A DNA stretch of 64,000 nucleotides from assembly GCA_016935665.1 (NCBI GenBank), contig JAFGQN010000203.1, forward strand, positions 49,237-113,236. The letters run 5' to 3'. The position numbers and the translations under genes were made by a program. The notes under the pieces were generated by a model. It was not told the DNA's origin. It did no database searches and saw nothing but the letters and a program-made list of their open reading frames with translations. The first letter of the stretch is position 1; every line of letters starts with the position of its first letter. This DNA comes from Deltaproteobacteria bacterium (GTDB lineage: Bacteria; Myxococcota_A; Polyangia; JAAYKL01). Below, one piece after another: positions 19,259 through 63,965 of this stretch.

Positions 19259-22200
19259 TTAGCGGATTAGTGCGGATTCGCTGTTCATGCGTTCTGTAAT
19301 CAGCACAAACTTCTGAAAGTCGGTATAGTGTTCTGGTGCAATTCGCTGGATGTTAAGGTGTGTTTTCCGTTCGATACGCACACGGTGATTTTCTGTTTCA
19401 GTTTCATAGCGGATGCAATATTCGGCACGCCCGCTGGCGTCCGACACGCATTGGGATTGCGGAAGCTGTGAAACCGCAAGGGTTTGAGGTAATTCAATAT
19501 CAACAACATAAGTGGATTTCATATAAGTGGCCAATACCAGTGGCATCGCGCGTTTTGCCAGACCGCCTGTCAACTGCGTGAAATCGGTTTTGAGTGGAAT
19601 AAACAAGTGGCTGCCGTTTGCTGTCTGCTGCAGCATTCCCTCCAATCGGATGTGGTACACCACAGTGAGAGGCACATCGCCATCGTGGATATTTCGAAGT
19701 GAAAAATCCTGCAGTACCGCTTCGGGAAACTTCGATGCCAGCAGATGTTCTTCTACAATTCGACGGTGCTCAGATTTTGAACCTTTAAACAGCGACCGCA
19801 ACAACGATGCCATTTCGCCAGTAATGGATTCTGTTACGGTGCCTGTGCCGCTACCATTGTCGTCGAGCGCAATAGTGGCGTCTATTACTGTTTCATCCAG
19901 AGGGATTCGTCCGGAATTTGTTTTTGCTATCTCACATGTATCTGGCAGCAACACGGATTGATGCTTCAGTTCTGCTGGCAATGTTCCCATTAAGGTCTCG
20001 TCGGCATCCATATGAACCCACGTGCCATCCGGCAGCAAAATCAACGGACTGCTATAGCGATTCATGTCCGGAATAGCGGAACGGGTGTGGTCACCCCACG
20101 CATGAGTGGCCAGTCCCAACCTGGCGTTGATACCCACTGCATTTAACATTGTTTGGAACAGACGCGCCCGGTTGCCCCGTCGACGACTGTAAATGTGTGT
20201 AACAGGCTCAAAGAGCATTGAGTCGTTTTCGATGTTTCGAATAATCCAGGTGTATATCCGATCGGCCTTTTTCGAATCGGGTGCATTTGACTCACCCTTC
20301 AGCGCAATTTTTGTGGCGAACTGTTTCAACTTTGGACTCTGCTGTGATTTACCGTGCAACAGTGTTGTATACCACTCACAGAGTGCTCTGTTGTTCGCCG
20401 CCGCCGTCACGCGAACAGACGGTAGGAATTCGAGGGCATCCGGTGTGTCCGGCTCGCTTTGCAGCGGTTCGATATTGCGGCGTCTAAAGGTGACCACCTG
20501 AATATTATCTGTCAGGCGCGTATTTGGTTCGGGCGCATCTCCCCGTGGGTCAAACTGCAGCGGCATTTCCCTCGGCGCAACAACAATCAGTTCCGAGCGT
20601 ACAAAAGTACTGTTGAAATCCTGAAAAAAGAACGGCTCGGAGTCAAAACCTCCCTTGAATACGTCATGTGGCGGCAGATAGCTGATGCCTTCATATTCCA
20701 CGTAATCGCCAATGGCCAGTCTGGGCATCGACAATGTGGATTTGTTATCGATGGGAGATGGATACAGCACACTTAAATCCGGTTTGATAACTCTGGCCTG
20801 AAGAATTTCGGCTCCTGGAGGAACAGGGAGTTCGCCATACTCGCTGACGGCATCCATGGAGTTGATGCGCCCCACCCAGTGCACCAAACGCATCCCGGCG
20901 CCAAACTTATCGATTATAAGCACCATTCTATCCAGCACCCACGAAAAGTCTCTATCGCTGGTGGAATTTCCTGCCTGATAATCCGCAACCACTTTCAAAC
21001 CATCCACACGATAGGAATTTATCGACATGCCTCCAGCCACTTCGTCACAAGCATACTGCAAATCAGGTCGAAGGGGCATGGCAGCCTGACTGCGACAGAT
21101 CTCCATGGCCTTCTTCGTCTGTGATGTGGCGTGGTATGCGTCAATCAAATACAGTTTGGGCGCCATGGCCAACGGAAATCTTTTATTCGCGGCATTCAAC
21201 TGGGAAATGGCATCTGTTTCTTTGCCCGCGTGTAACAGCGCCATGGCCGTGTCTATTGCGGCTTCGGGAGAAAACGGCGTCTGCTGCGAAATATGCGCCA
21301 GTTCTCCTGCGGCGGCATCAAACTTTAAACGTCTTGAAAATTCAGTAGCCAGGGCGGTGTTGGATAGCGTGCACTTTGTAATTTGTTGCGCCGTTTCCAT
21401 TGCATCATCAAATCGATTTTCCTCAACTGAAAACGCATAGTCCCACATCAGGATGGGGCAGGCATTGTCGCCAAGAATGGTCTTTGCCCCCATAAGATAT
21501 TCCTGTGCAAATGGCATCCATCTTTTTTCATACGCCAACTCCGCAGCGGTCAGATAAAGCGTTGGCTCCTTTGGCGCGGCCTTAATGGATTCATTTACAA
21601 TATCAAATGCGTCCTGCGTGCGCTCATTGCGGTTCGCTGCCTGCGCCAGAAAACGCGCCGCCCTGTACAGACGCGAATCCCTTTGAAACGCGTGTTCATA
21701 TTGCTGCCGCGCCGTTTCCATGCCCGTTTCGATTGCATTGTACGGAGACGTCAGGGCCGCTTCCGCTTTTAAAAGCGCTTGAAAAGGAGCGTTGTCGTTC
21801 AGCTTTGACACCTCCGCCTGCCACTGGTGGGGCGCCACATTCCACAGGTTGTATCGCAATTGGGCCAATCGAGCCGATTCCGAAAGCGGAGCGGGAAAAC
21901 GAATCCCAGTTAATTTCGTCGGTATTGGGGCAGTGGTGAGCGGGAATGATTCGGAGTCATGCAACAGGACCGATTGGTGCATGGTGATCGCCGCCAGGGA
22001 AAATGACGGAGTGTACTCGGTGGCAAATGCCGAAACACTTATCTGGTGACTCCCCGGCGGCAGTGTCGCCGAAAGCCATCTGCTTTCAGGGAGCCATCGT
22101 TCCTGAGAGGTCTGGATGTATGCTGCTTCTCCATCGATATAAATAGTGGCATCGGAATTGCTCTGAAAACGAAACCATACCGTTTGAGGTGTTGAAAGAT

Positions 22201-22930
22201 GGATAGCGGTGCGGGCGACAACATATCCGGTGTTGTCGTCTGGCAGGGGTTGCGACGTAATTTGACACACATCAAACGTGCGATTCTCCACGGGGATCAA
22301 CGGGCGGCCGGCGCCAGCGGACAGCTGCCCTGGCCATATGGGCGATTCAATCAGTTTCGCAAGAGAACGTCTGCCCGTTATGTCTGTTGATAGAGGACCA
22401 GTCAGTTGCCATCGTAAAAGACAGCCCGTATTCTCAAGCAGTTTGAGCGCATCGTCATGTCCCCGTTTCTGTGCAAAGGAAAACTGAAGAATGCGTAATT
22501 GAAACAAGGCTTCAGGCGACAGTGTACCCGGTGCTGCGGACCATTCTTTCAGATGCGGCGAAATGCGTTGCTCAAAATTTTGCACGCGGTGCCGCAACTG
22601 AACCAGCGCAATCGCCGCTGCGGTCCCTTCCCAGAATAGATTCGGCGCTGTACGCGCGACCGAAACGGTGCGTAGATATTTTTCAAACGCTTCCTCGGGA
22701 GTTCCTGTTTCATCCAGAATATATGCCAATATGTAGTTCGCCTCAGGCGTATTGCGTTGACGCAGTTGGTTTTCCAGGGAGGCAATATCGCTTTCTTTGA
22801 AAAAAAGCGACTTTGCCGGCGCTTGCCCACCGCTCCAATTTTGTGAATGAACCGTTTGGGCGGGGATAGAAGCGCAGGATGAAATAAAAAGATACAGCAG
22901 TATGATAACAGCGTTCAACGAGCGAAACAT
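19259..22930 (-). CDS. Large secreted TPR/repeat protein with a degenerate transglutaminase-like domain (Cys and His lost)
   Basis: 1,223 aa. Signal peptide MFRSLNAVIILLYLFISSCAS. The segment aligned to the paralogue's catalytic core reads RRGNRARLFQTMLNAVGINARLGLA and ...SSPLILLPDGTWVHMDAD. The start ATG overlaps the upstream gene's TAA by 1 nt. Confidence 0.6.
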   Translation of the reverse strand: MFRSLNAVIILLYLFISSCASIPAQTVHSQNWSGGQAPAKSLFFKESDIASLENQLRQRNTPEANYILAYILDETGTPEEAFEKYLRTVSVARTAPNLFWEGTAAAIALVQLRHRVQNFEQRISPHLKEWSAAPGTLSPEALFQLRILQFSFAQKRGHDDALKLLENTGCLLRWQLTGPLSTDITGRRSLAKLIESPIWPGQLSAGAGRPLIPVENRTFDVCQITSQPLPDDNTGYVVARTAIHLSTPQTVWFRFQSNSDATIYIDGEAAYIQTSQERWLPESRWLSATLPPGSHQISVSAFATEYTPSFSLAAITMHQSVLLHDSESFPLTTAPIPTKLTGIRFPAPLSESARLAQLRYNLWNVAPHQWQAEVSKLNDNAPFQALLKAEAALTSPYNAIETGMETARQQYEHAFQRDSRLYRAARFLAQAANRNERTQDAFDIVNESIKAAPKEPTLYLTAAELAYEKRWMPFAQEYLMGAKTILGDNACPILMWDYAFSVEENRFDDAMETAQQITKCTLSNTALATEFSRRLKFDAAAGELAHISQQTPFSPEAAIDTAMALLHAGKETDAISQLNAANKRFPLAMAPKLYLIDAYHATSQTKKAMEICRSQAAMPLRPDLQYACDEVAGGMSINSYRVDGLKVVADYQAGNSTSDRDFSWVLDRMVLIIDKFGAGMRLVHWVGRINSMDAVSEYGELPVPPGAEILQARVIKPDLSVLYPSPIDNKSTLSMPRLAIGDYVEYEGISYLPPHDVFKGGFDSEPFFFQDFNSTFVRSELIVVAPREMPLQFDPRGDAPEPNTRLTDNIQVVTFRRRNIEPLQSEPDTPDALEFLPSVRVTAAANNRALCEWYTTLLHGKSQQSPKLKQFATKIALKGESNAPDSKKADRIYTWIIRNIENDSMLFEPVTHIYSRRRGNRARLFQTMLNAVGINARLGLATHAWGDHTRSAIPDMNRYSSPLILLPDGTWVHMDADETLMGTLPAELKHQSVLLPDTCEIAKTNSGRIPLDETVIDATIALDDNGSGTGTVTESITGEMASLLRSLFKGSKSEHRRIVEEHLLASKFPEAVLQDFSLRNIHDGDVPLTVVYHIRLEGMLQQTANGSHLFIPLKTDFTQLTGGLAKRAMPLVLATYMKSTYVVDIELPQTLAVSQLPQSQCVSDASGRAEYCIRYETETENHRVRIERKTHLNIQRIAPEHYTDFQKFVLITERMNSESALIR

Positions 22931-25900
22931 TATTTTGCTTCTCCTTTGCGATGGAGCGTAATTCGCGCGCGCTCCGCCGCGTCCACCGCCAGTACAAACC
23001 GCAGGAAATCGCCATATTCAGACACCTCCACCACCTGCTTTGTCAAACTGAATGTGCGTGTCACCGTCAGTCCTCCCGCTGTTTTTCGAATGCGTCGCTC
23101 ATACGCGCCAAAGTCGGAGACAATGCGGGCATCGTTGACAGGTGTTTCGGCGTTGTACTGATGTGGAACAAGATACCGAATGGTCAGCTCCGTTGTGCGG
23201 GCGGGGCCCACCTGTAGCGGGTGACGTCGTTTTTGCAACGGAGCAAATTTGGGCTTTAGTTTCATGGGAGGCATTACTTCAAATGACAGGGTCCCAAAAT
23301 TTTGTTTCGCCAACTGCGGTATCCGGGCAAAAAAGGCAATCTGAGGGGTTTTTTCCAGGTCTTTCAAATTTAAAAAGTCAGACGATTCCATTTGAATGGC
23401 GGGATATCGTTCGGAAAACCGTTCTTCAAGAATCTGCTTATCGCTGGCGGTTGCGAACGTGGTGCGCAGCCATGGTGCAAAAGGCGCCCCGGATGCGCTC
23501 ATCGTTCCGTTTATGGTTGCGCTGCCATCCGATGCAATGGTTATCGTCTCTGTTTCAATAAACGTGGATGCAGCGCTGTCACGGACAGTCGTATTTCGCA
23601 ATTTTACAGGTGAAACACCAATCACCAGCGCCTCTATCCCCTGGTCTTCGAAGGGCATGTCGTTTACCCCATGAAATGTGGCTGTCCCATCCAGCCATAA
23701 ATCGTATTTGGGTACGTATGCAATGGCGTGATTGAACAGTGAGAGGGAAGGGTGCTGCATGCGTATCTGACCAGCGGACCGGGTACGCACAAGCGCTACA
23801 TGGGCCTGTATACCGGCTTCGTTCAACATGGCTACCAGAAGAGTGGCGGTGTCTTTGCAATCGCCAAAGCCGCGGGCACGCACCTGAGAGGTACTGTATG
23901 GTTTGTAGCCATGAATACCAAATTCCAGACCCACGTATCGGATGTTGGTAGTTACCCAGCTGTAAACGGCTGCAATTTTATCCCGGTCGTTTCGACGATT
24001 TCTAATCAATTTCTGAACCAGCGATTTCAGCGATGTGTCCCCTTTGAGCTGGGGACGAATCAGTTCCGCGTACCACGATTCCATTTGGGACCAATCCTGC
24101 CAGGAGGTGGCGTGGACGTATTCCACCAGCGACATAGCGCCGGGGACATCCGGCTCGTCGGGGATGGCAGGGAGATTTTGTGCTGTAAATACAGTTATAT
24201 CCATATCATCCGCCTTTGTGTCAACTCTACGGACGGGGGTGGACAGTTCAAAGTATACTGGAAACGTTTTGGGGCGTATGAGGGCAAACTGGAACAGCGC
24301 CACCGGGATATCGCTGTTGATCGGGATAATGGTGCCAAAGTAGTTTCCAAACATATTCTCCTGGCCAATATCATCAACGCGAAATTGAAATTCCACCACA
24401 TCTCCCACGGCCGGTCTGGGCAATTCCACCACTTCCGCCTCAATGTCGTAATAGAGCCGATACCAGGGTTCTGACACCGGGAAGGTGGCGCGTCCTGTGG
24501 CCTGTTCGATGGTGCCATCGGTTTTGAACAACCGGGCCTTAAGCAGCTGAATCGTCTGAGTGGAGGAAAATTGCTCGCTGTACTGCTGCCATTGTCTGGC
24601 GCCATCGTCGGTGGCGATATAAGCAACCACCTGCGTGACGGTGGACGACAGACCGTTTTCGTGGACCTGAATGACGGTGTTGTTTACCAGGAGACAGTCC
24701 TCCTGCCGGTTTTCACAGAAGTGGCCTTTTTTTGTAAATGTTTGTGGGGAAATAAGCCAGGGCGTCGCCAGCGTGTCCTCCGGTTGCAGGAATGACAGAT
24801 ATGCACGCAATTGGGTATCCTGCGGGGATTGCCGCAAACTGCCGGTCAGATATGTAAGCGCGCGATCTTTGTCTCTGTGGATATAAAACTCTCCGGCAAA
24901 CTTTCGGTATTCACTAACCCCCGGCGCTTTTGCATGCAGGTCATCGAGGAGGGCAATCAGTGGTTTGGTGAGAGAAGCGCCGTCCATCAGTTTCGCCAGT
25001 TCGAGAACCGTTTCAATGGGGGGCGCGCCAATGAGCTGCCAGGATTTCAATGTTTGCTGTACGGATTTGTCAATGCCATCCACCGACAAACGCAGTATCT
25101 GCAGATGACGGTCGAAATTCCCAAAATCGCTGTCCAGCGCTTTTTTTAAAATGGTTGTTGTGTGTACATCTGCCGGCATCCCTTCCTGGCTATCGGCCAC
25201 ACAACCGGCGAGCAGCGGGGAGAGGGGACGGCCGATGAGCTGTTTTCTGAGTTGTCGCCCGGTCTCCGGCAGAAATATATTGTAGTAATTGAGTATCGCA
25301 CAAATGACTTCATCGGATGCGTCCGGGCGTTTTGACGCTTCGATAAGATCGAACTGCGCATTGCGATAAAGCGGCGCGGCAGCGTCCAAAATCAGCAGTT
25401 TCGTTTTGGCTTCTGCATTTTCCACATCCTTTTCCAAAACATGCATATATGCCTGGCGCTGCTCATTCACATCCAATGTCAGTTGTGCGGCTGTGAAGCA
25501 GAACTCGAAGGACTTCAATTCCTCACAGGCGCTGAATGCGGCATCCCTTTGAGCGGTGTCTTTTTTTGCGGCGCCGGTCAGATGTGCGTACTTTGCAAAA
25601 TAGCCGTTATGGGCAGGACGCACAGGTCCTTTGGGCGCAGGTTTTAACAGTTGCAGCAGAGACGCCGACTTTGGCGCCGTCGCCACTTCAGTGTGAACGG
25701 GGGGACGAAATTCGGCACGCTCATTAAACGGGAGCACTGGCTGTTCGTTGGAATCGAGAAACCGGGCGTAAAAAGAAAGGGTACCACTCTCATCGCTGCA
25801 GACTTTGACAGTGATGCTTTCTTTGCCCTGTTCCAGCCGCACGGGGATGTGGAATCTGTTTATATCGGCGTCGTCAAATTGGGTATCTTCCAAAACCCGC

Positions 25901-26535
25901 GTATTATTGACGTAGACCCGTGCCTGACCTCCGGCGCCAAACCAAAGATGATAGTTGTCGGTGCGCGGAACGGCCACATGGGTTTGTGCGACAACACATA
26001 TATCTTTTGCTGATGAGAAGAGGGGTTCCATCGTTACTTTTCCAAGACGATGAGAGAGCCAGCTGGATTGGAACAGACATGGCCCTGCGCTTTTGGACGG
26101 TGTGCAATTGGGTGCCGTTGGCAGTGGTGCGGGTGAATCATTGTCGATGATAAACGATTCAGCAAGTCCTGTGCCCGACTCGTTGGGAAATGGACCGGCA
26201 AATTGCCACCGGGTTAAAAATCCCATTTGTTCAATCGCATGGTTGGCGTCTTTGGGGTGGCCAGTCATGAGTTTTAAAGTGGCCAGCAGATGACGGGCCC
26301 GGTGTCTTGCGGCCGGCTGCAAAGCGGGGAGCTGCAGTGCGCTTTCCAGCTCGGCGGTGGCAACCTTTGCTCCAAATGAACCATACTGCTCAAAAATCTG
26401 CAAAACGAGCAAATCGGCAAAACGGGAATTCGGTTTTTGCTTCAACACTGAGAGTGCTCTGGAGTCTGCCAGTGCCGAAGTTGCTGCGAGCAGCGTGCAC
26501 ATGACCCCCAATAAAAACAGTTTACGTATCTTCAT
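22930..26535 (-). CDS. Large secreted protein with an intact transglutaminase-like cysteine-protease core (DUF3857/DUF3858-like architecture)
   Basis: About 1,200 aa. Signal peptide MKIRKLFLLGVMCTLLAATSALA. Core RGFGDCKDTATLLVAMLNEAGIQAHVALV (Cys), FNHAIAYV (His) and LWLDGTA (Asp). Start chosen at the MKIRK ATG; the track uses an upstream TTG at 26571. Confidence 0.7.
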   Translation of the reverse strand: MKIRKLFLLGVMCTLLAATSALADSRALSVLKQKPNSRFADLLVLQIFEQYGSFGAKVATAELESALQLPALQPAARHRARHLLATLKLMTGHPKDANHAIEQMGFLTRWQFAGPFPNESGTGLAESFIIDNDSPAPLPTAPNCTPSKSAGPCLFQSSWLSHRLGKVTMEPLFSSAKDICVVAQTHVAVPRTDNYHLWFGAGGQARVYVNNTRVLEDTQFDDADINRFHIPVRLEQGKESITVKVCSDESGTLSFYARFLDSNEQPVLPFNERAEFRPPVHTEVATAPKSASLLQLLKPAPKGPVRPAHNGYFAKYAHLTGAAKKDTAQRDAAFSACEELKSFEFCFTAAQLTLDVNEQRQAYMHVLEKDVENAEAKTKLLILDAAAPLYRNAQFDLIEASKRPDASDEVICAILNYYNIFLPETGRQLRKQLIGRPLSPLLAGCVADSQEGMPADVHTTTILKKALDSDFGNFDRHLQILRLSVDGIDKSVQQTLKSWQLIGAPPIETVLELAKLMDGASLTKPLIALLDDLHAKAPGVSEYRKFAGEFYIHRDKDRALTYLTGSLRQSPQDTQLRAYLSFLQPEDTLATPWLISPQTFTKKGHFCENRQEDCLLVNNTVIQVHENGLSSTVTQVVAYIATDDGARQWQQYSEQFSSTQTIQLLKARLFKTDGTIEQATGRATFPVSEPWYRLYYDIEAEVVELPRPAVGDVVEFQFRVDDIGQENMFGNYFGTIIPINSDIPVALFQFALIRPKTFPVYFELSTPVRRVDTKADDMDITVFTAQNLPAIPDEPDVPGAMSLVEYVHATSWQDWSQMESWYAELIRPQLKGDTSLKSLVQKLIRNRRNDRDKIAAVYSWVTTNIRYVGLEFGIHGYKPYSTSQVRARGFGDCKDTATLLVAMLNEAGIQAHVALVRTRSAGQIRMQHPSLSLFNHAIAYVPKYDLWLDGTATFHGVNDMPFEDQGIEALVIGVSPVKLRNTTVRDSAASTFIETETITIASDGSATINGTMSASGAPFAPWLRTTFATASDKQILEERFSERYPAIQMESSDFLNLKDLEKTPQIAFFARIPQLAKQNFGTLSFEVMPPMKLKPKFAPLQKRRHPLQVGPARTTELTIRYLVPHQYNAETPVNDARIVSDFGAYERRIRKTAGGLTVTRTFSLTKQVVEVSEYGDFLRFVLAVDAAERARITLHRKGEAK

Positions 26536-26704
26536 TTGACGTGAGTATAAGAGGCTGCGTTGGAAAAGCAATTTGGATTTAAAATGAATGAATGCGAAGC
26601 CCTGTTTTTCAATTCAATCCTCCGTTATCGTTTGACCTGTGCGCCCAGACCTTGTCTTATGCCGACAATCAACTATGTGGAAAGTTCCCTTAAACAGAGT
26701 GGAT

Positions 26705-27841
26705 TCAGCTCAAGGCGTCTTTTAAATCATCGAGCAAATCCGGAGTATCCTCGATGCCCAGTGAGAGTCGTACATTGGTTTTTTTGATTCCGGCGGCGAT
26801 GCGGGCCTCTTTGGTCATGGATGCGTGGCTCATGAACCAGGGCGCCTCCGCCAGCGATTCGATACCTCCCAGCGATTCGGCCAGAGTGAAATAGTTGAGT
26901 CGGCTGAAAAAAACATTGAGATCCATTGCACCGGGTTTAAAATCAAAACTGACCATTCCCCCAAAACCACTCATTTGCCGTTTGGCCAACGCGTGCCCCG
27001 GATGGGTGGCAAGGCCCGGGTAATAGGTGGTCTCCACTTTATCGTGATTCTGCAGAAACTCCGCCACCGCCGTGGCATTTCGTGTATGCTGCGCCATTCG
27101 AATTCCCAGCGTTTTAACACCGCGCAACACCAGCCATGCATCGAACGGCGCCTCACTGATGCCCAATGCGTTTACATTGAACTGAACCTGTTCGGCCAGC
27201 TCTGTGGTGGAGGATACAATCACGCCTCCCACAACATCGCTGTGTCCGTTGATGTACTTGGTGGTGGAGTGAATGACAATATCAATACCGAGCCGCAGCG
27301 GCTTTTGGTAATACGGCGTCATGAAGGTATTATCCACAACGCTAAGAGCCCCGTGTTTGCGTGCAATGGATGCCACGGCTTCCAAATCCACAATATTCAG
27401 CAGCGGATTGGACGGTGTTTCTATCCACACCATTTTGGTATTGGGGCGCAGGGCGACCTTGAGATTGTGGGGATTTCGCATGTCCACGAAGGTGAATTCG
27501 ATGCCCATGCGGGAAAAGACCGCATCCATTAATCGAAATGTGCCACCGTAAATATCATTTCCGCTAACCACGTGATCACCGGCCTTAAGCAGATGCAGAA
27601 CCCCGGTGACGGCACTCATTCCCGTTGACGTGCATCGGGCATCCACGCCTTCCTCAAGAGTCGCAATGTTCTCTTCCGCAGCCCGGCGCGTTGGATTGCC
27701 GGAGCGGGTATAATCGTATCCGGTGTTGGTGTGAATGTCACTGAATGCAAAATTGGAGGAGGTGTACAGCGGCGTGGTCACCGACCGGTACTGGGAATCC
27801 TTGGCCACCCCTGTGTGTACTGCTTTTGTATTAAACCCCAT
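26705..27841 (-). CDS. PLP-dependent Cys/Met-metabolism enzyme (cystathionine gamma-synthase / beta-lyase / methionine gamma-lyase family)
   Basis: YTRSGNPTRRAAEENIATLEEG and the PLP-Lys region STTKYINGHSDVVGGV. 378 aa. Confidence 0.8.
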   Translation of the reverse strand: MGFNTKAVHTGVAKDSQYRSVTTPLYTSSNFAFSDIHTNTGYDYTRSGNPTRRAAEENIATLEEGVDARCTSTGMSAVTGVLHLLKAGDHVVSGNDIYGGTFRLMDAVFSRMGIEFTFVDMRNPHNLKVALRPNTKMVWIETPSNPLLNIVDLEAVASIARKHGALSVVDNTFMTPYYQKPLRLGIDIVIHSTTKYINGHSDVVGGVIVSSTTELAEQVQFNVNALGISEAPFDAWLVLRGVKTLGIRMAQHTRNATAVAEFLQNHDKVETTYYPGLATHPGHALAKRQMSGFGGMVSFDFKPGAMDLNVFFSRLNYFTLAESLGGIESLAEAPWFMSHASMTKEARIAAGIKKTNVRLSLGIEDTPDLLDDLKDALS

Positions 27842-38300: not shown

Positions 38301-39101
38301 ATGATAAACAGTCGTGGTGTTTCAGAAGAACTGGAAAAACAATACGGGTTGTGTAAAGCGATCGCCCGTGAGGTGTATGACCTCGTTTCCCATCTCGGTA
38401 CCCCAAAAGTGTTGTTGCGCGATAAAAATCTACTTGTTGAGTTGCCTTCGAACACTGTCAGTTTTGTGACAGAAGGGTATTTGAAATTGGTGCACGACAA
38501 CCGGGAAATCCGCATGTTTTCCAATGGCGACTTTATCCCAGTGACTGGTGGATGGGCAGAGGAATATCGCATTTCAAGCGACTTTAAATCCGAGCTGATG
38601 ATTTTTCCCCATTTGGAACTGGTGGAATATATTTGTAAAAAAGAGGAATTGGGCCGAAAGTGGGCCGAATTGTGCGCCATGGAGCAACGGTTGCAATTGT
38701 GTTTGTGTGGTGAGTTTGCACCAGAAATAATTGATTGTGAAATGGTGGTGAAAACTTATTCAAAAGGCGATGTGATAATGAATCCGAACTCGACGGATGG
38801 TACTGTTTTTGAGATGATATCCGGAAAAGCAGATGTTTTTGTAGATGATATTCTGGTTGGGACGGTGGGGAACAATGAGTTGTTCGGAGAGTTGACACTG
38901 CTTGTTCCGGATTCCACACCCGAAAAGGTAATTGCCAGAAAAAACTGCTTTGTACGTCAACTGGATTCTCGTGCGTTTACACATCTGATTGAGTCCAACT
39001 CGCAATTTGCAGTCACATTGCTTAAAAACCTCGCTTCAAAAATTGAAGCCCTCCATCAACTGGCAACCCATAACCATAACCAGATCAGCCGCCCCGAATA
39101 A
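38301..39101 (+). CDS. Cyclic-nucleotide-binding domain protein without a DNA-binding domain
   Basis: cNMP-binding fold in the C-terminal half (KTYSKGDVIMNPNSTDGTVFEMISGKADVF...NELFGELTLL). No HTH follows. Divergent from the metallophosphoesterase. Confidence 0.65.
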   Translation: MINSRGVSEELEKQYGLCKAIAREVYDLVSHLGTPKVLLRDKNLLVELPSNTVSFVTEGYLKLVHDNREIRMFSNGDFIPVTGGWAEEYRISSDFKSELMIFPHLELVEYICKKEELGRKWAELCAMEQRLQLCLCGEFAPEIIDCEMVVKTYSKGDVIMNPNSTDGTVFEMISGKADVFVDDILVGTVGNNELFGELTLLVPDSTPEKVIARKNCFVRQLDSRAFTHLIESNSQFAVTLLKNLASKIEALHQLATHNHNQISRPE

Positions 39102-47383: not shown

Positions 47384-48628
47384 ATGGAAAAGATCAAAAC
47401 GGATGTGACTGTTCTTCATATTGAAAGTGATGCTGACAACCGGCGTCTGGTTCATGAAATACTTTCGAACAACGGTATTAATGTAGTTGAAGCGAGCAAT
47501 GGTATTGATGGCATCCATAAGGCGTTATCCACTTCGCCCGATGTTATTTTGCTGGACATCGCTCTGCCGGATTTGGATGGTTATGAAGTCACCCTGAAAA
47601 TACGAGGCGACGAGCGCGGAAAAAAAGTACCCATCGTGGCGTTGTCTACTCAGAATGATAAAAAAATGATTCAGGCTGTGGGCTGTGATGGATTGATCGT
47701 TAAACCCATTGAAATTTCAAAGCTTCCCGAACAGATTCGCGCGTTTGCCAAAGCCGGCAGACCGACTGTGCAGATTCGAAGCGATGCAGATAGAGATGAC
47801 GAAAGTGGATTGCTGCTGCTTCAGGGACATAAGTTGGCAGACAAGCTTCAAAAGAAGGTGGAGGAGCTCGAACGCGCCAACCGCGCATTGCTGGAATCGG
47901 AAAAGATCCGAACCGATTTCTATCGAAATTTATCCCATGAATTATCGACCCCCTTGACCCCGGCTGTTGGATACCTGAACATGCTCCTTAACGAGGATTT
48001 GGGCGAACTGACCCCGTTGCAACGCAAAGCCATCGAATCCATTGGACGAGGTGTCACCAAAGTGCGCTCCATGGTCGAAAATCTGCTCGATGTTACCGCT
48101 CTTTCCACCGGAAAGATGTCCTTTTTTTCCAGGGAGTACGATTTTAACATGCAGGCGCGAGAGGCATTGAAGCTCTGCTCGGAACAGTTTCGTGAAAGAG
48201 GGATTCGTGTGGATTCCTCCATTCCCAAATCGCAGTTTGTCGGCATTGGCGATTCGGAGAAACTGCGACGAGCGATGGTTCAATTGCTTGAAAATGCTGT
48301 AAAATTCTGCAAACCCGACGGTCAGGTCCATATATGTACGCGTCGCACCGCCGACAGATTTATGTACCTGGTTTATGATTCAGGGTCCGGAATTCCGGAG
48401 CAGGAACTTCAGGCCATTTTCAAAACATTTTATCAAATCGATGGCTCACCCACCCGCGAGCATGGTGGCACAGGACTGGGTCTGGCGCTGGCACGAAAGA
48501 TCATTGAACGATTTGGCGGAGAGATATGGGCAGAGTCTCCCCCAAAGGAACACGCCATTGGATTTGAATGGGCACAAACGATGGTTGGGTTGTGGGTTCC
48601 GGTGCAGGTTTCGGTAGCAAACGTATAA
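47384..48628 (+). CDS. Hybrid sensor kinase with the receiver first (REC - HisKA - HATPase_c)
   Basis: REC with acidic pocket and Asp (DVILLDIALPDLDGYEV). H-box SHELSTPLTP. G-boxes SGSGIPEQE...GGTGLGLALA. Confidence 0.8.
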   Translation: MEKIKTDVTVLHIESDADNRRLVHEILSNNGINVVEASNGIDGIHKALSTSPDVILLDIALPDLDGYEVTLKIRGDERGKKVPIVALSTQNDKKMIQAVGCDGLIVKPIEISKLPEQIRAFAKAGRPTVQIRSDADRDDESGLLLLQGHKLADKLQKKVEELERANRALLESEKIRTDFYRNLSHELSTPLTPAVGYLNMLLNEDLGELTPLQRKAIESIGRGVTKVRSMVENLLDVTALSTGKMSFFSREYDFNMQAREALKLCSEQFRERGIRVDSSIPKSQFVGIGDSEKLRRAMVQLLENAVKFCKPDGQVHICTRRTADRFMYLVYDSGSGIPEQELQAIFKTFYQIDGSPTREHGGTGLGLALARKIIERFGGEIWAESPPKEHAIGFEWAQTMVGLWVPVQVSVANV

Positions 48629-48631
48629 AAG

Positions 48632-48640
48632 TTATCCACA
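48632..48640 (+). promoter_or_regulatory. Perfect DnaA box TTATCCACA (box 1)
   Basis: Exact 9-mer match, 4 bp after the stop of the upstream kinase gene. Confidence 0.6.
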
Positions 48641-48745
48641 GGCCAGCGTTGTTTTTCTTGATAACGCATCCGAATTTTACCGGTTAAACAATTGAAATTA
48701 TTGAGTTTTGAATAGAGTATGCCATTGTGACGGAATTCACAATAG

Positions 48746-48775
48746 TTTATCCACAGGTTTTCCACAGTTGTCCAT
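48746..48775 (+). promoter_or_regulatory. Perfect DnaA box TTATCCACA (box 2), immediately followed by two degenerate boxes TTTTCCACA and TTGTCCATA
   Basis: 48746..48754 perfect; 48757..48765 one mismatch; 48767..48775 two mismatches. All in the same orientation. Confidence 0.6.
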
Positions 48776-48807
48776 AAGTGAAAAAAAAATGGAAATTTTG
48801 CTCCGTG

Positions 48808-48838
48808 GTTCCCACATTTTCTCCCCAGTTTATCCACA
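48808..48838 (+). promoter_or_regulatory. Degenerate DnaA box GTTCCCACA and perfect DnaA box TTATCCACA (box 3)
   Basis: 48808..48816 two mismatches; 48830..48838 perfect; same orientation as boxes 1 and 2. An AT-rich tract (A9TGGAAATTTTG) lies at 48781..48800, and the region 48660..48745 is AT-rich. Confidence 0.6.
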
Positions 48839-48844
48839 AAAAAA

Positions 48845-48947
48845 ACGGCGAACTCGCGATTTGGGGGCTGTTGTTTGCGAATTCGCCGTTGGTAAATTGA
48901 AGGCGACGAACTCGAATCGGGGGGCTGTTGTTATCGAGCTCGCCGCC
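48845..48947. repeat. Two tandem imperfect palindromes / hairpins with a conserved loop GGGGGCTGTTGTT (candidate sRNA or paired protein-binding sites)
   Basis: Hairpin 1 at 48845..48889: arms ACGGCGAACTCGC / GCGAATTCGCCGT, 19-nt loop. Hairpin 2 at 48902..48947: arms GGCGACGAACTCGA / TCGAGCTCGCCGCC, 18-nt loop. Stem differences between the two copies are compensatory. Confidence 0.5.
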
Positions 48948-49183
48948 AAAAACTGGTTGGAATCAAATGCAACAGATGTGCCATATGTTACAAAGGGGAC
49001 TGCACCGCAAAAAATCCTGTATATTCAAATTGTACCGAATTTTAATACCCAATGCGTTTTTATCCGTGCTAAAAGGGATGTTTCAGACCTGAAACGATGG
49101 CTTGCAAAAGGTTAATTTTTGACATGTTGGCGAAATCGTTCAAATTATGTGAATGGTAACTCAACAGAAAGCAGTAACTTTTA

Positions 49184-51181
49184 GTGATGTCGCTAACGAT
49201 TTATAAGGTAGTTGTTTTCTCGACTGACAGTTTTGATGTTCTTGGGTTTCGACGTGCGCTAAAAAAAGCATCCATTCACTGTGAAACCGTGTTTATTTCC
49301 GCGTATGAGGAGCTGGAGCAAATCATTCATCAGGAAAATCGCGAAACGTTTGATTTGGCATTGGTTGAGTATGGAGAAAATATAGAGGATTCCTGTCGCG
49401 CGGCCCAGTTGCTCGTGGGTGAAACCGATTTGCCCATTATTGGCATCTTCATGCCCGACAGCTTTGAAACCATCGCCAGGGAACTGTCCGAGGGAATCAC
49501 GAGTTATGTTGTTCAATCTCAAAAGGGAGAACACTTCGATGTGTTGTCCGTACTCATCCGCAACAACGTCCGGTCTCAAACCGATGTGGTGAAGTTTGAC
49601 AGGTTCCGCGAGCAAATCGCCATGTTAAAGCGGGAGCAGCACGCTCTGCTTAATTCGAGTTTGACATTGATTTCATATCATCAGCCCGATACCCGCATTA
49701 TCTGGTCCAATGCGTATGAAGAAGAAGGCGAGGTCAGTTCGTACGACTACCTCGCAGGACGTTTGTGTAAGGAAATCTGGAAAAATGGCGGCATACCCAA
49801 TGGCAAATGCCCCGTGGCCACCGCTGTGGAAACGGGAGAATCTGTCGAAGCGGAAGTGACCACCCTGGATGGATACACTATGCTGCAGCGATCCTATCCA
49901 GTGAAGAATGAAGACGGCAAAGTGGTTGGTGTCATGGCCAGTACTCTCGATATGTCTGCTGTTTCGCCAGCTCAGGAGGCTATGCGCACTGCTGCTCGAA
50001 TTCAGGCATCCGCCACTCTTGCGGGGGGGATTGCACATAAATTCAACAACTTAATGGCAGGGGTCATGGGTAATGTGTCTTTGGCGCTGCAGGATTTGAC
50101 AGAAAACCATCCCGCCTGTCCGTTGCTCTACGAGATTGAGCAGGCGGCTCATACAGCCGGTGAGTTGTCAGAACAATTGTTGGCTTTCGCGCGCGGCGGC
50201 AAATACCTGCCAAAGCGAATCAACATGAACGAGGTGATTACCGAAGCATTGCAAACCCATTCCCGCAGGCTTCCCGGGAAAATAAAGCTGGATCACGAGC
50301 TCACCAAAGATTTGTGGCCCATTGACGCCAATCAGGCGCAAATGGGACTTCTGTTGACGCAGGTATTCAATAATGCTGTTGAAGCGATTGAAGCCAGCGA
50401 CAGATTTCAGAGAGGGGAAGGTCGTATTTCCATCATCACGACCAATGAGCAGATTGTGGATTCCGCCAATTCACAAAAACCGTGGCTGAGAGATGGACGC
50501 TATGTGTGCGTCGCCATCGAAGACAACGGTTGCGGTATGAGCGCGGAAACCCGGCAGAAAATATTTGAACCGTTCTTTACAACGAAGAAAAAGGGTCGTG
50601 GCCTCGGGTTATCCGGTGCTTATGGGATAGTGCGCAGTCACGAAGGACATATTTTTGTTGAATCCGAAAAGGGAAGGGGCACTACCGTGGCAATTCATAT
50701 TCCTGCGACGAATGTGGAAGAATTACCTGTCGAACCACCGGCAAAAGCAATAGCGGAAACACCACGTCCGATTGTACTGGCCCGCGGAAGCGAGACAGTA
50801 CTGGTTGTGGATGACGAAGCGATGCTTCGCAAAGCCATTCACAGACTCCTGAAGCGACTGGGATATACCGTGCTTGAAGCATCCAGTGGCGATGAAGCTG
50901 TGACACTGGCCAAAGAATACGAAGGTCCCATACATATCACCTTACTCGATATGATTATGCCTGGACTGGATGGTATGGACGCCTACCGTCAGTTAAAAGA
51001 ACAGTATCCCACCATGGAAGTAATTGTAATGAGCGGTTACGATCGCGAAACATATGGCGACGCGCTTATCGATGCCGGAGCTGGTGCGTTTATGCAGAAA
51101 CCAGTTCCCATGGATCGAATAGCCTCTGAAATACGCCGCATACTGGACGACAAGGAAACACCGCCGGTTCCTGCCGATTGA
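49184..51181 (+). CDS. Hybrid sensor kinase (pseudo-receiver-like N-terminus - PAS - HisKA - HATPase_c - REC)
   Basis: H-box GIAHKFNNLMAGV. G-boxes ...DNGCGMSAE...GRGLGLSGAYGIV. C-terminal REC with Asp (ITLLDMIMPGLDG). The N-terminal ~110 aa are REC-like but the acceptor position reads LVEYGE. Confidence 0.8.
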   Translation: MMSLTIYKVVVFSTDSFDVLGFRRALKKASIHCETVFISAYEELEQIIHQENRETFDLALVEYGENIEDSCRAAQLLVGETDLPIIGIFMPDSFETIARELSEGITSYVVQSQKGEHFDVLSVLIRNNVRSQTDVVKFDRFREQIAMLKREQHALLNSSLTLISYHQPDTRIIWSNAYEEEGEVSSYDYLAGRLCKEIWKNGGIPNGKCPVATAVETGESVEAEVTTLDGYTMLQRSYPVKNEDGKVVGVMASTLDMSAVSPAQEAMRTAARIQASATLAGGIAHKFNNLMAGVMGNVSLALQDLTENHPACPLLYEIEQAAHTAGELSEQLLAFARGGKYLPKRINMNEVITEALQTHSRRLPGKIKLDHELTKDLWPIDANQAQMGLLLTQVFNNAVEAIEASDRFQRGEGRISIITTNEQIVDSANSQKPWLRDGRYVCVAIEDNGCGMSAETRQKIFEPFFTTKKKGRGLGLSGAYGIVRSHEGHIFVESEKGRGTTVAIHIPATNVEELPVEPPAKAIAETPRPIVLARGSETVLVVDDEAMLRKAIHRLLKRLGYTVLEASSGDEAVTLAKEYEGPIHITLLDMIMPGLDGMDAYRQLKEQYPTMEVIVMSGYDRETYGDALIDAGAGAFMQKPVPMDRIASEIRRILDDKETPPVPAD

Positions 51182-63224: not shown

Positions 63225-63965
63225 TTAGAACAAATCCAAATCGTCTTTTTCTTTTTTCTTCTTTTTTTCCTTTTTCTTTGCCTTTTTCTTTTCTGCCTGC
63301 GGCGGACTGACAACGTCTTCTTCATTTATGTCCCACTCGACCGCGTCGGGGCAGGGTTTATTTTCCTTTTTCGCTTTCTCTTCGTCGCACGGCTCCTCTG
63401 TACGGGCAGTATCCCGAAGAAACTCCAGCTCAAACGATTTTCCCTTTATGCGAATCAGTTCTGTGAGGGCATAAAAATCGTCGACCAGAGAGTTGAACTC
63501 TGCCGGCTCTGATTCCAGGACAACCAGAAGCACCAGGGGGATCTCTTCTTTGACGCCTTTCAGGTTTTTCGTTCGGTTCAGTCCGCCCATATCGGTGATT
63601 TTAAGCATAAAAATGGCGAAGCGCATATCGGCGTCGGGGGCATTCGAATCAAATTCGCTGCGATTCACGTAGCCAATAAGGCCATCGTAATCCAGCACTT
63701 TGACAGCCTTGTAATTCAACATGGTTATTTTTGCCTGTTTATCCACCTCTGACTTTTCAAATCGTTTCCCGGCATTCCACGGTTCTTTGGCCGCCATGTT
63801 CGCCACAAATGTTTTATACATATCTTCTACAGACATTTTCCATTCCGCAGAAGAGGCAGTGGTCAAGTCCACTGTTAATGTAGAGAGGCTCCCATCATGT
63901 TTTAAAACCAGTTCGGAATGGTATTTCTTCACTCGGTCCGGATTCCCGTTATTATATTTATCCAC
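63225..63965 (-). CDS. Hypothetical protein with a Lys/Glu-rich C-terminal tail; the frame is open to the window end, so it is probably 5'-partial
   Basis: 246 aa shown. Tail AEKKKAKKKEKKKKKEKDDLDLF. No stop between the first Met and position 64000 in frame. Confidence 0.4.
   Translation of the reverse strand: MDKYNNGNPDRVKKYHSELVLKHDGSLSTLTVDLTTASSAEWKMSVEDMYKTFVANMAAKEPWNAGKRFEKSEVDKQAKITMLNYKAVKVLDYDGLIGYVNRSEFDSNAPDADMRFAIFMLKITDMGGLNRTKNLKGVKEEIPLVLLVVLESEPAEFNSLVDDFYALTELIRIKGKSFELEFLRDTARTEEPCDEEKAKKENKPCPDAVEWDINEEDVVSPPQAEKKKAKKKEKKKKKEKDDLDLF

Follow-up and report, generated by a model that had tools for sequence, protein, structure and literature searches.

Non-origin DnaA-box clusters usually lie near the origin of replication. 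To our knowledge, the tuning of initiation by such clusters has been examined in very few models, namely datA and the DARS loci of Escherichia coli, the DnaA-box clusters (DBCs) of Bacillus subtilis, and Streptomyces. In B. subtilis, stable DnaA binding outside the origin needs at least four dense high-affinity boxes, and most of the clusters also regulate neighbouring genes (PMC2533591). The gcp-ydiF cluster of the same species is conserved and located between convergent 3' ends, a position described as "uncharacteristic for transcriptional regulation" (PMC2533591). The deletion of six B. subtilis clusters resulted in early initiation, and the role proposed for them is negative control by binding DnaA (PMC3245932). 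In the E. coli datA locus, a bend site is flanked at fixed spacing by boxes on which the locus depends (PMC4585315). The DARS core has three boxes, two of which (I and II) face in opposite directions 5 bp apart, and DnaA oligomerisation takes place on head-to-tail arrays with a spacing of 10-11 bp (PMC6868365).

The window (the whole stretch of 64,000 nucleotides analysed here) contains a dense group of DnaA boxes in the gap between two sensor kinase genes. Judged by its box layout, the group appears to belong to the known class of non-origin DnaA-box clusters, among which its geometry would be unusually regular. The best explanation, which we consider to have about an even chance of being correct, is a conserved cluster outside the origin that buffers the initiator in the manner of the B. 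subtilis DBCs or E. coli datA.

DnaA Boxes in the Intergenic Gap

The gap (48629-49183/49186) separates two plus-strand genes, HK1 upstream (47384-48628), encoding a REC-HisKA-HATPase kinase, and HK2 downstream (49187-51181, ATG at 49187), encoding a hybrid kinase. Exact copies of TTATCCACA were found at 48632-48640, 48747-48755, and 48830-48838, all on the plus strand. These three same-strand copies within about 210 bp had been reported in the initial annotation and are confirmed, the middle box starting at 48747, one base from the reported 48746. The weaker co-oriented boxes were also as described there, with TTTTCCACA (48758) and TTGTCCATA (48768) following the second exact box and GTTCCCACA at 48808; TTCTCCCCA at 48819 is additional. 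The cluster of ~210 bp consists of three exact and four to five weaker boxes. The box preference of the host DnaA was assumed to be the standard consensus, and the binding of DnaA to these boxes is predicted.

The enrichment of boxes beyond chance was borne out by the counts. The window contains five exact copies of TTATCCACA against 0.45 expected, a number reached by 0 of 100 shuffles. The 500-bp bin of the cluster includes four boxes at ≤1 mismatch; when box density was compared with other sites of the window, no other 500-bp bin was comparable (maximum of two). A 218-bp segment comprises eight boxes at ≤2 mismatches versus 0.9 expected. The exact boxes outside the cluster, at 27330, at 63958, and on L172 (window-equivalent 64476), are isolated, and at least two of them apparently lie inside coding sequence. 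Over 70 kb, all six exact copies of TTATCCACA and 21 of the 26 boxes at ≤1 mismatch are located on the plus (apparent leading) strand; the positive GC skew, taken alone, would favour the reverse bias.

The boxes are arranged in three parts. Box 1 (48632-48640, plus strand), an exact TTATCCACA, begins 4 nt past the stop codon of HK1. It is followed by a spacer of 106 bp (48641-48746), about 11 helical turns long and 64% AT, with little sequence conservation among relatives outside a mid-spacer motif, TTAAAC-N3-TGAAAT (48684-48698). At the end of the spacer, adjoining array 1, there is a perfect CRP/FNR-type palindrome, TGTGA-N6-TCACA (48726-48741), which is present in three of the six species compared; a protein with a cNMP-binding domain is encoded at 38301-39101. 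Array 1 (48747-48776, plus strand) has the structure TTATCCACA gg TTTTCCACA g TTGTCCATA, with head-to-tail boxes starting 11 and 10 bp apart, and its consensus among relatives is TTATCCACAggTTATCCACAggTATTCACA. After a run of nine A (48781-48789), array 2 (48797-48838, plus strand) is formed by a degenerate site at 48797, GTTCCCACA at 48808, TTCTCCCCA at 48819, and TTATCCACA at 48830 in steps of 11 bp, and is in helical phase with array 1 and box 1.

The box starts, including box 1, fit a helical lattice with a pooled best period of 10.5 bp (R = 0.88, six species). The fit of individual species to the 10.5-bp lattice gave R values from 0.85 to 1.0 in five of six, and the proportion of random positions matching it was ≤0.002 in three species, 0.02-0.05 in two, and 0.26 in one. 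At ≤2 mismatches, 36 of 42 boxes in the six species are on the plus strand. The conservation of the boxes together with their phasing indicates that selection maintains them and that they share a single face of the helix.

Conservation of the Locus in Related Species

The window matches a contig of the Logan assembly of run SRR13394437, and NCBI lists the identical HK2 protein for a "Deltaproteobacteria bacterium" MAG. Relatives were retrieved through HK2 orthologues with 76-84% identity, which yielded five further species (L083/L084, L085, L086, L087, and L088). All of them share with the window species the block HK1 - gap - HK2 - aroK - aroE - leuA-like - ccsA. The alignment of the six long gaps revealed one layout, including box 1, a spacer of fixed length, array 1, an interval of 28-31 bp, array 2, an A-run, and a GC-rich hairpin. 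Box 1 is kept just past the HK1 stop codon in all five close relatives (in one with a 1-nt deletion). The spacer has diverged in sequence while its length is 106 bp in the window species and 107-108 bp in the relatives. Array 1 contains from two to four boxes and array 2 up to four, in both cases 10-11 bp apart; array 2 is missing from L088, a close relative that retains just three boxes. As in the B. subtilis DBCs, at least four close boxes lie in an intergenic region, and they are conserved at the same locus in five further species.

A more distant relative, L089 (= L092; 75% identity for HK1 and 50% for HK2), retains HK1 - gap - HK2, and its gap has no boxes, the HK1 stop codon lying directly against the A-run and hairpin. 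The cluster is therefore either a separable insert of ~210 bp or was lost from this lineage. The three boxes of L088 and the lack of any in the distant relative imply that the element is dispensable over longer evolutionary distances. Even more distant HK2 orthologues have different neighbours. A metagenome scan using the HK1 alignment and generic peptide patterns recovered one true orthologue, identical to L089 where read. The nearest GTDB genome by the M32 peptidase (71% identity) is a Polyangia MAG without the box cluster, in which synteny ends at the peptidase.

HK1 is much better conserved among the species than HK2, with identities from 75% to 90% for HK1 and from 50% to 84% for HK2. In distant relatives, HK2 has no HK1 partner, and the gene directly after it encodes the M32 carboxypeptidase; in the window this gene is located 2 kb upstream of HK1. 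To the left of HK1, all five close relatives have a divergent ArsR-type HTH gene and genes for multihaem cytochrome and Ni-hydrogenase cytochrome b; in the window species this place is occupied by sfsA and the M32 peptidase gene, so that synteny breaks immediately left of HK1. Farther upstream, on the minus strand at 19259-26571, two tandem genes of ~1200 aa encode paralogous proteins with TPR, DUF3857, transglutaminase-core, and DUF3858 domains.

The relative lacking boxes also bears on the identity of the binding protein. The 9-mers could be bound by another protein, for instance a response regulator from the phosphorelay that flanks them, and match the DnaA consensus fortuitously; the locus is embedded in a signalling module, and DnaA binding is a prediction. 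Against this, three of the 9-mers are exact copies of the DnaA consensus, the variants differ from it at positions known to be tolerant (TTWTNCACA), and DnaA is known to oligomerise on head-to-tail arrays spaced by 10-11 bp (PMC6868365). The signalling module is moreover present in the relative without any boxes, and we consider a different protein quite improbable.

Replication Origin Prediction

The initial annotation had proposed the gap foremost as a candidate oriC. The locus would then be an origin relocated away from dnaA, with the spacer between box 1 and array 1 acting as the unwinding element. In box density and in its number of consensus boxes the cluster equals typical origins, and a distal box phased with co-oriented proximal boxes is also found in the B. 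subtilis origin (PMC6669920). The GC skew does not agree with this reading. The cumulative skew and strand check recommended in the initial annotation was run over 70 kb and showed a monotonic rise from 0 to +1287, with no minimum at 48.6 kb and no sign switch at the gap; raw GC skew is positive on both sides of the cluster. The skew was also split gene by gene into replication and transcription components. The strand-corrected replication term on the left was r = +0.042 ± 0.008 (33 genes), where an origin would need a negative value, and on the right it was +0.007 ± 0.015 (11 genes), or +0.017 ± 0.011 with the flank extended to 70.4 kb. From the skew over 70 kb, we infer that the cluster is located outside oriC.

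The genes dnaA, dnaN, gidA, parAB, rpmH, and hemE were not found among the annotated genes of the 70 kb, the neighbours being housekeeping biosynthesis genes, and gene strands do not diverge at the cluster. The initial annotation had already noted, correctly, that the window contains no dnaA or dnaN, which extends to the 70 kb, and that the flanking gene strands show no clean divergence. The AT-rich stretch that it had likened to a DNA-unwinding element proved to be ordinary, since the spacer is 64% AT compared with 58-64% in the other gaps of the window, and lower stability is predicted for at least 12 other sites of the window. No similarity to plasmids or phages was found for the 600-bp gap, and the origin of an integrated plasmid or phage is therefore unlikely.

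The basal unwinding system (BUS) is defined by a box/box pair, a spacer of ≤16 bp, and at least three DnaA-trios (NAN) on the complementary strand (PMC8287927). The polarity of the trios was deduced from PMC10721633 and from the E. coli origin sequence. Past box 1, the window species has a GC-rich 8-mer and, on the complementary strand, five NAN trios (P about 0.05), as might be expected of an origin. Box 1 satisfies a permissive form of the rule in four of six species, with chance-level probabilities of 0.05-0.53, and fails it in two. The trio run is not kept in the relatives, and no conserved run of DnaA-trios was detected after any box in the six species. Neither array is followed by trios; the A-runs there put T, not A or C, at the trio centre (PMC8287927, PMC10721633). 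With no skew minimum or switch, no exceptional unwinding element, no conserved trios, and no indicator genes, and with the cluster missing at the same locus in L089/L092, the relocated oriC is very improbable.

Candidate Small RNA Gene and Transcriptional Context

In addition to the boxes, the gap contains a candidate unannotated gene for a sigma-54-dependent small RNA, predicted on the minus strand at 48838-48983. A perfect sigma-54 (-24/-12) promoter motif, TGGCAC-atctg-TTGCA, was identified at 48968-48983 (minus strand), from which transcription would start near 48957. This motif is found at one common position in all seven species, and the 9-14 kb locus of each relative has no second match; TGGCAY-N5-TTGCW has two matches in the window versus 0.36 expected. 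About 25-30 nt downstream of it is the first (or only) hairpin. Terminator hairpin A (48838-48890, minus strand) has a stem in which 48890-48877 pairs with 48857-48844, a GCCCCC loop, and a U-run at 48845-48838. The promoter-proximal hairpin B (48902-48947, minus strand) is a duplicate of hairpin A, present in the window species only.

The folding data assign the RNA to the minus strand. The minus-strand RNA 48960-48830 has a predicted energy of -49.7 kcal/mol (z = -6.3), compared with z = -1.3 for the plus strand, and the stem mismatches of the plus strand are all A-C, which become G-U pairs on the minus strand. The hairpin shows covariation over the seven species; among eight hairpin copies, 94.6% of cells are paired, with four pairs changed on both sides and five G-U cells, whereas slid controls gave 30-45%. 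The minus-strand hairpin is followed by a run of 6-11 U and is therefore taken as an intrinsic terminator. In most species the predicted transcript has a length of about 60 nt and amounts to little more than a 14-bp hairpin with a GCCCCCC loop; with the duplicated hairpin of the window species, it reaches about 120 nt. Rfam searches at gathering and permissive thresholds detected no known RNA in the gap, and no tRNA or tmRNA was found in the window. The hairpin covariance model revealed no extra copies in the window or in the 30 loci searched. No gene for an enhancer-binding protein was found among the window ORFs scanned against Pfam (part of the ORFs). An ORF of 108 aa at 48789-49115 (plus strand), called in the Logan annotation, is almost certainly spurious, because it is uncalled in every relative and spans the hairpins and the promoter.

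Small RNAs of this type are known beside two-component genes; the sigma-54-dependent Qrr of Vibrio, for example, is encoded next to luxO. Others are GlmY beside glrK/glrR in enterobacteria, including E. coli (PMC3045617), and Dv_sRNA2 downstream of DVU0679 in Desulfovibrio vulgaris (PMC3333781).

On the other side of the gap, HK2 has a conserved sigma-70-type promoter (TTGACA, 18 nt, AATTAT) at 49119-49148 on the plus strand. Between the two divergent promoters lie conserved upstream elements (49057-49095), comprising TTTTATC..GTGCTAAAAG and the palindrome GTTTCAGacCTGAAAC at 49080-49095, in which TTTCA-N4-TGAAA is present in all six aligned species. These elements may represent a site for an enhancer-binding protein or another regulator common to both promoters. 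A further TTTCAA half-site occurs in the conserved divergent control region (49057-49148). The half-sites of parS are separated by 2 nt; GTTTCAGacCTGAAAC was rejected as parS after inspection of the alignment, its conserved half-sites being 4 nt apart.

The box cluster is flanked by the HK1 stop codon on one side and by the terminator of the minus-strand sigma-54 transcript on the other. The U-run of hairpin A overlaps the last base of the DnaA box at 48830-48838. No conserved sigma-70 promoter was seen in the spacer when the six gaps were aligned and inspected by eye. The boxes thus lie between two convergent 3' ends and do not form a promoter operator. DnaA control of the downstream hybrid kinase, suggested in the initial annotation, is unlikely, since HK2 has its own sigma-70 promoter about 290 bp beyond the last box, with the convergent small RNA gene in between.

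Another form of local control would be a DnaA oligomer that, as a roadblock or insulator, separates the kinase unit from the convergent small RNA unit. For example, it could stop read-through of the HK1 mRNA across the antisense small RNA gene into HK2 and couple the module to replication status. No intrinsic terminator was found on the plus strand after HK1, in each of the five close relatives the last box directly adjoins the terminator U-run of the minus strand, and most B. subtilis clusters regulate neighbouring genes (PMC2533591). On the other hand, the boxes are downstream of both units with none at a promoter, HK2 has its own conserved promoter about 290 bp away, and the relative without boxes retains the arrangement of kinase, small RNA, and kinase. 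This relative keeps the whole arrangement, which means that the module works without the boxes. A roadblock function is therefore somewhat unlikely, while being the most credible of the alternatives to initiator buffering.

A broader proposal joins the DnaA array and the module of sigma-54 small RNA and two kinases in one functional unit. A DnaA oligomer dependent on replication status, phased over ~200 bp and looped via the 11-turn spacer, would gate read-through between the kinase mRNA and the antisense small RNA. If so, initiator availability would be wired directly into a phosphorelay. We know of no datA, DARS, or DBC locus that shows such a link between initiator and phosphorelay, and we regard the single unit as a long shot. 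A relocated origin lacking a BUS is a weaker alternative to it.

Proposed Role of the Cluster

Initiator buffering by a non-origin cluster remains the preferred reading. Under it, seven to nine co-oriented boxes would be displayed on one helix face about 10.5 bp apart, and the consensus boxes at 48632, 48747, and 48830 would nucleate DnaA. The weaker boxes between them may be filled cooperatively, giving a head-to-tail DnaA oligomer on both arrays, and the isolated box 1, at a distance of about 11 turns, could be brought into it if the fixed-length spacer loops or bends. The cluster would act as a sink or inactivation platform that lowers or buffers free (ATP-)DnaA and restrains re-initiation. 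DnaA binding, oligomer formation, looping, and the effect on initiation are all predicted from the arrangement of the boxes. The position of the cluster between convergent 3' ends, with no promoter operator, makes a sink or inactivation role the most likely, and the precedents of the B. subtilis DBCs and datA, together with the lack of a DARS pair, are the grounds for reading the locus as a DnaA assembly site.

Two narrower versions of this role had been put forward in the initial annotation. A DARS-like site is not supported, as the defining pair of oppositely oriented boxes is absent (PMC6868365); no conserved inverted partner of any box was found at the cluster. A DnaA-binding or DnaA-controlling locus stood in its generic datA- or DBC-like form, given the conservation and phasing in six species. 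The IHF consensus WATCAANNNNTTR was matched at the mid-spacer position with ≤1 mismatch in two of six species, which is the level expected by chance, and the datA-type mechanism is therefore not established.

A conserved, strictly phased cluster in an uncultured deltaproteobacterium-like lineage suggests that loci buffering the initiator are spread more widely than the model organisms indicate. With its co-oriented boxes on a 10.5-bp lattice and a further box 11 turns away, the cluster provides a clean natural design for studying DnaA oligomerisation on duplex DNA without unwinding. For metagenome-assembled genomes, the locus illustrates that a high density of boxes, taken by itself, can misdirect origin prediction. 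Besides the boxes, the gap has provided a candidate sigma-54-dependent small RNA, so far unannotated, next to the two sensor kinase genes.

Comparison with Known Systems

The candidate small RNA resembles GlmY, Qrr, and Dv_sRNA2 in the -24/-12 promoter, the upstream palindromes, and the short hairpin-terminated RNA beside sensor-kinase genes, and differs from them in being very short and in having no sequence or Rfam relationship to them. Compared with an oriC carrying a BUS, the cluster shares co-oriented tandem boxes, a distal phased box, and the consensus TTATCCACA (PMC6669920, PMC8287927), but it lacks a conserved DnaA-trio run, a distinctive unwinding element, a skew switch, and indicator genes. 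DARS1 and DARS2 of E. coli are likewise small non-origin DnaA-box clusters that control the initiator; they contain the oppositely oriented I/II core, whereas the boxes here are head-to-tail. As in E. coli datA, which acts through datA-dependent DnaA-ATP hydrolysis, boxes are located on either side of a spacer of conserved length, and the mid-spacer motif could be the bend site; the number and arrangement of the boxes differ, and the IHF consensus here is unreliable.

The closest resemblance is to the B. subtilis DBCs, which belong to another phylum. The cluster differs from them in the near-complete co-orientation of its boxes, the strict 10.5-bp phase, and the outlying box 11 turns away. The likeness is one of sequence layout, DnaA binding being predicted here and demonstrated in vivo there; it extends to dense intergenic clusters of at least four boxes outside the origin, to their conservation among relatives, and, for gcp-ydiF, to the position between convergent 3' ends.
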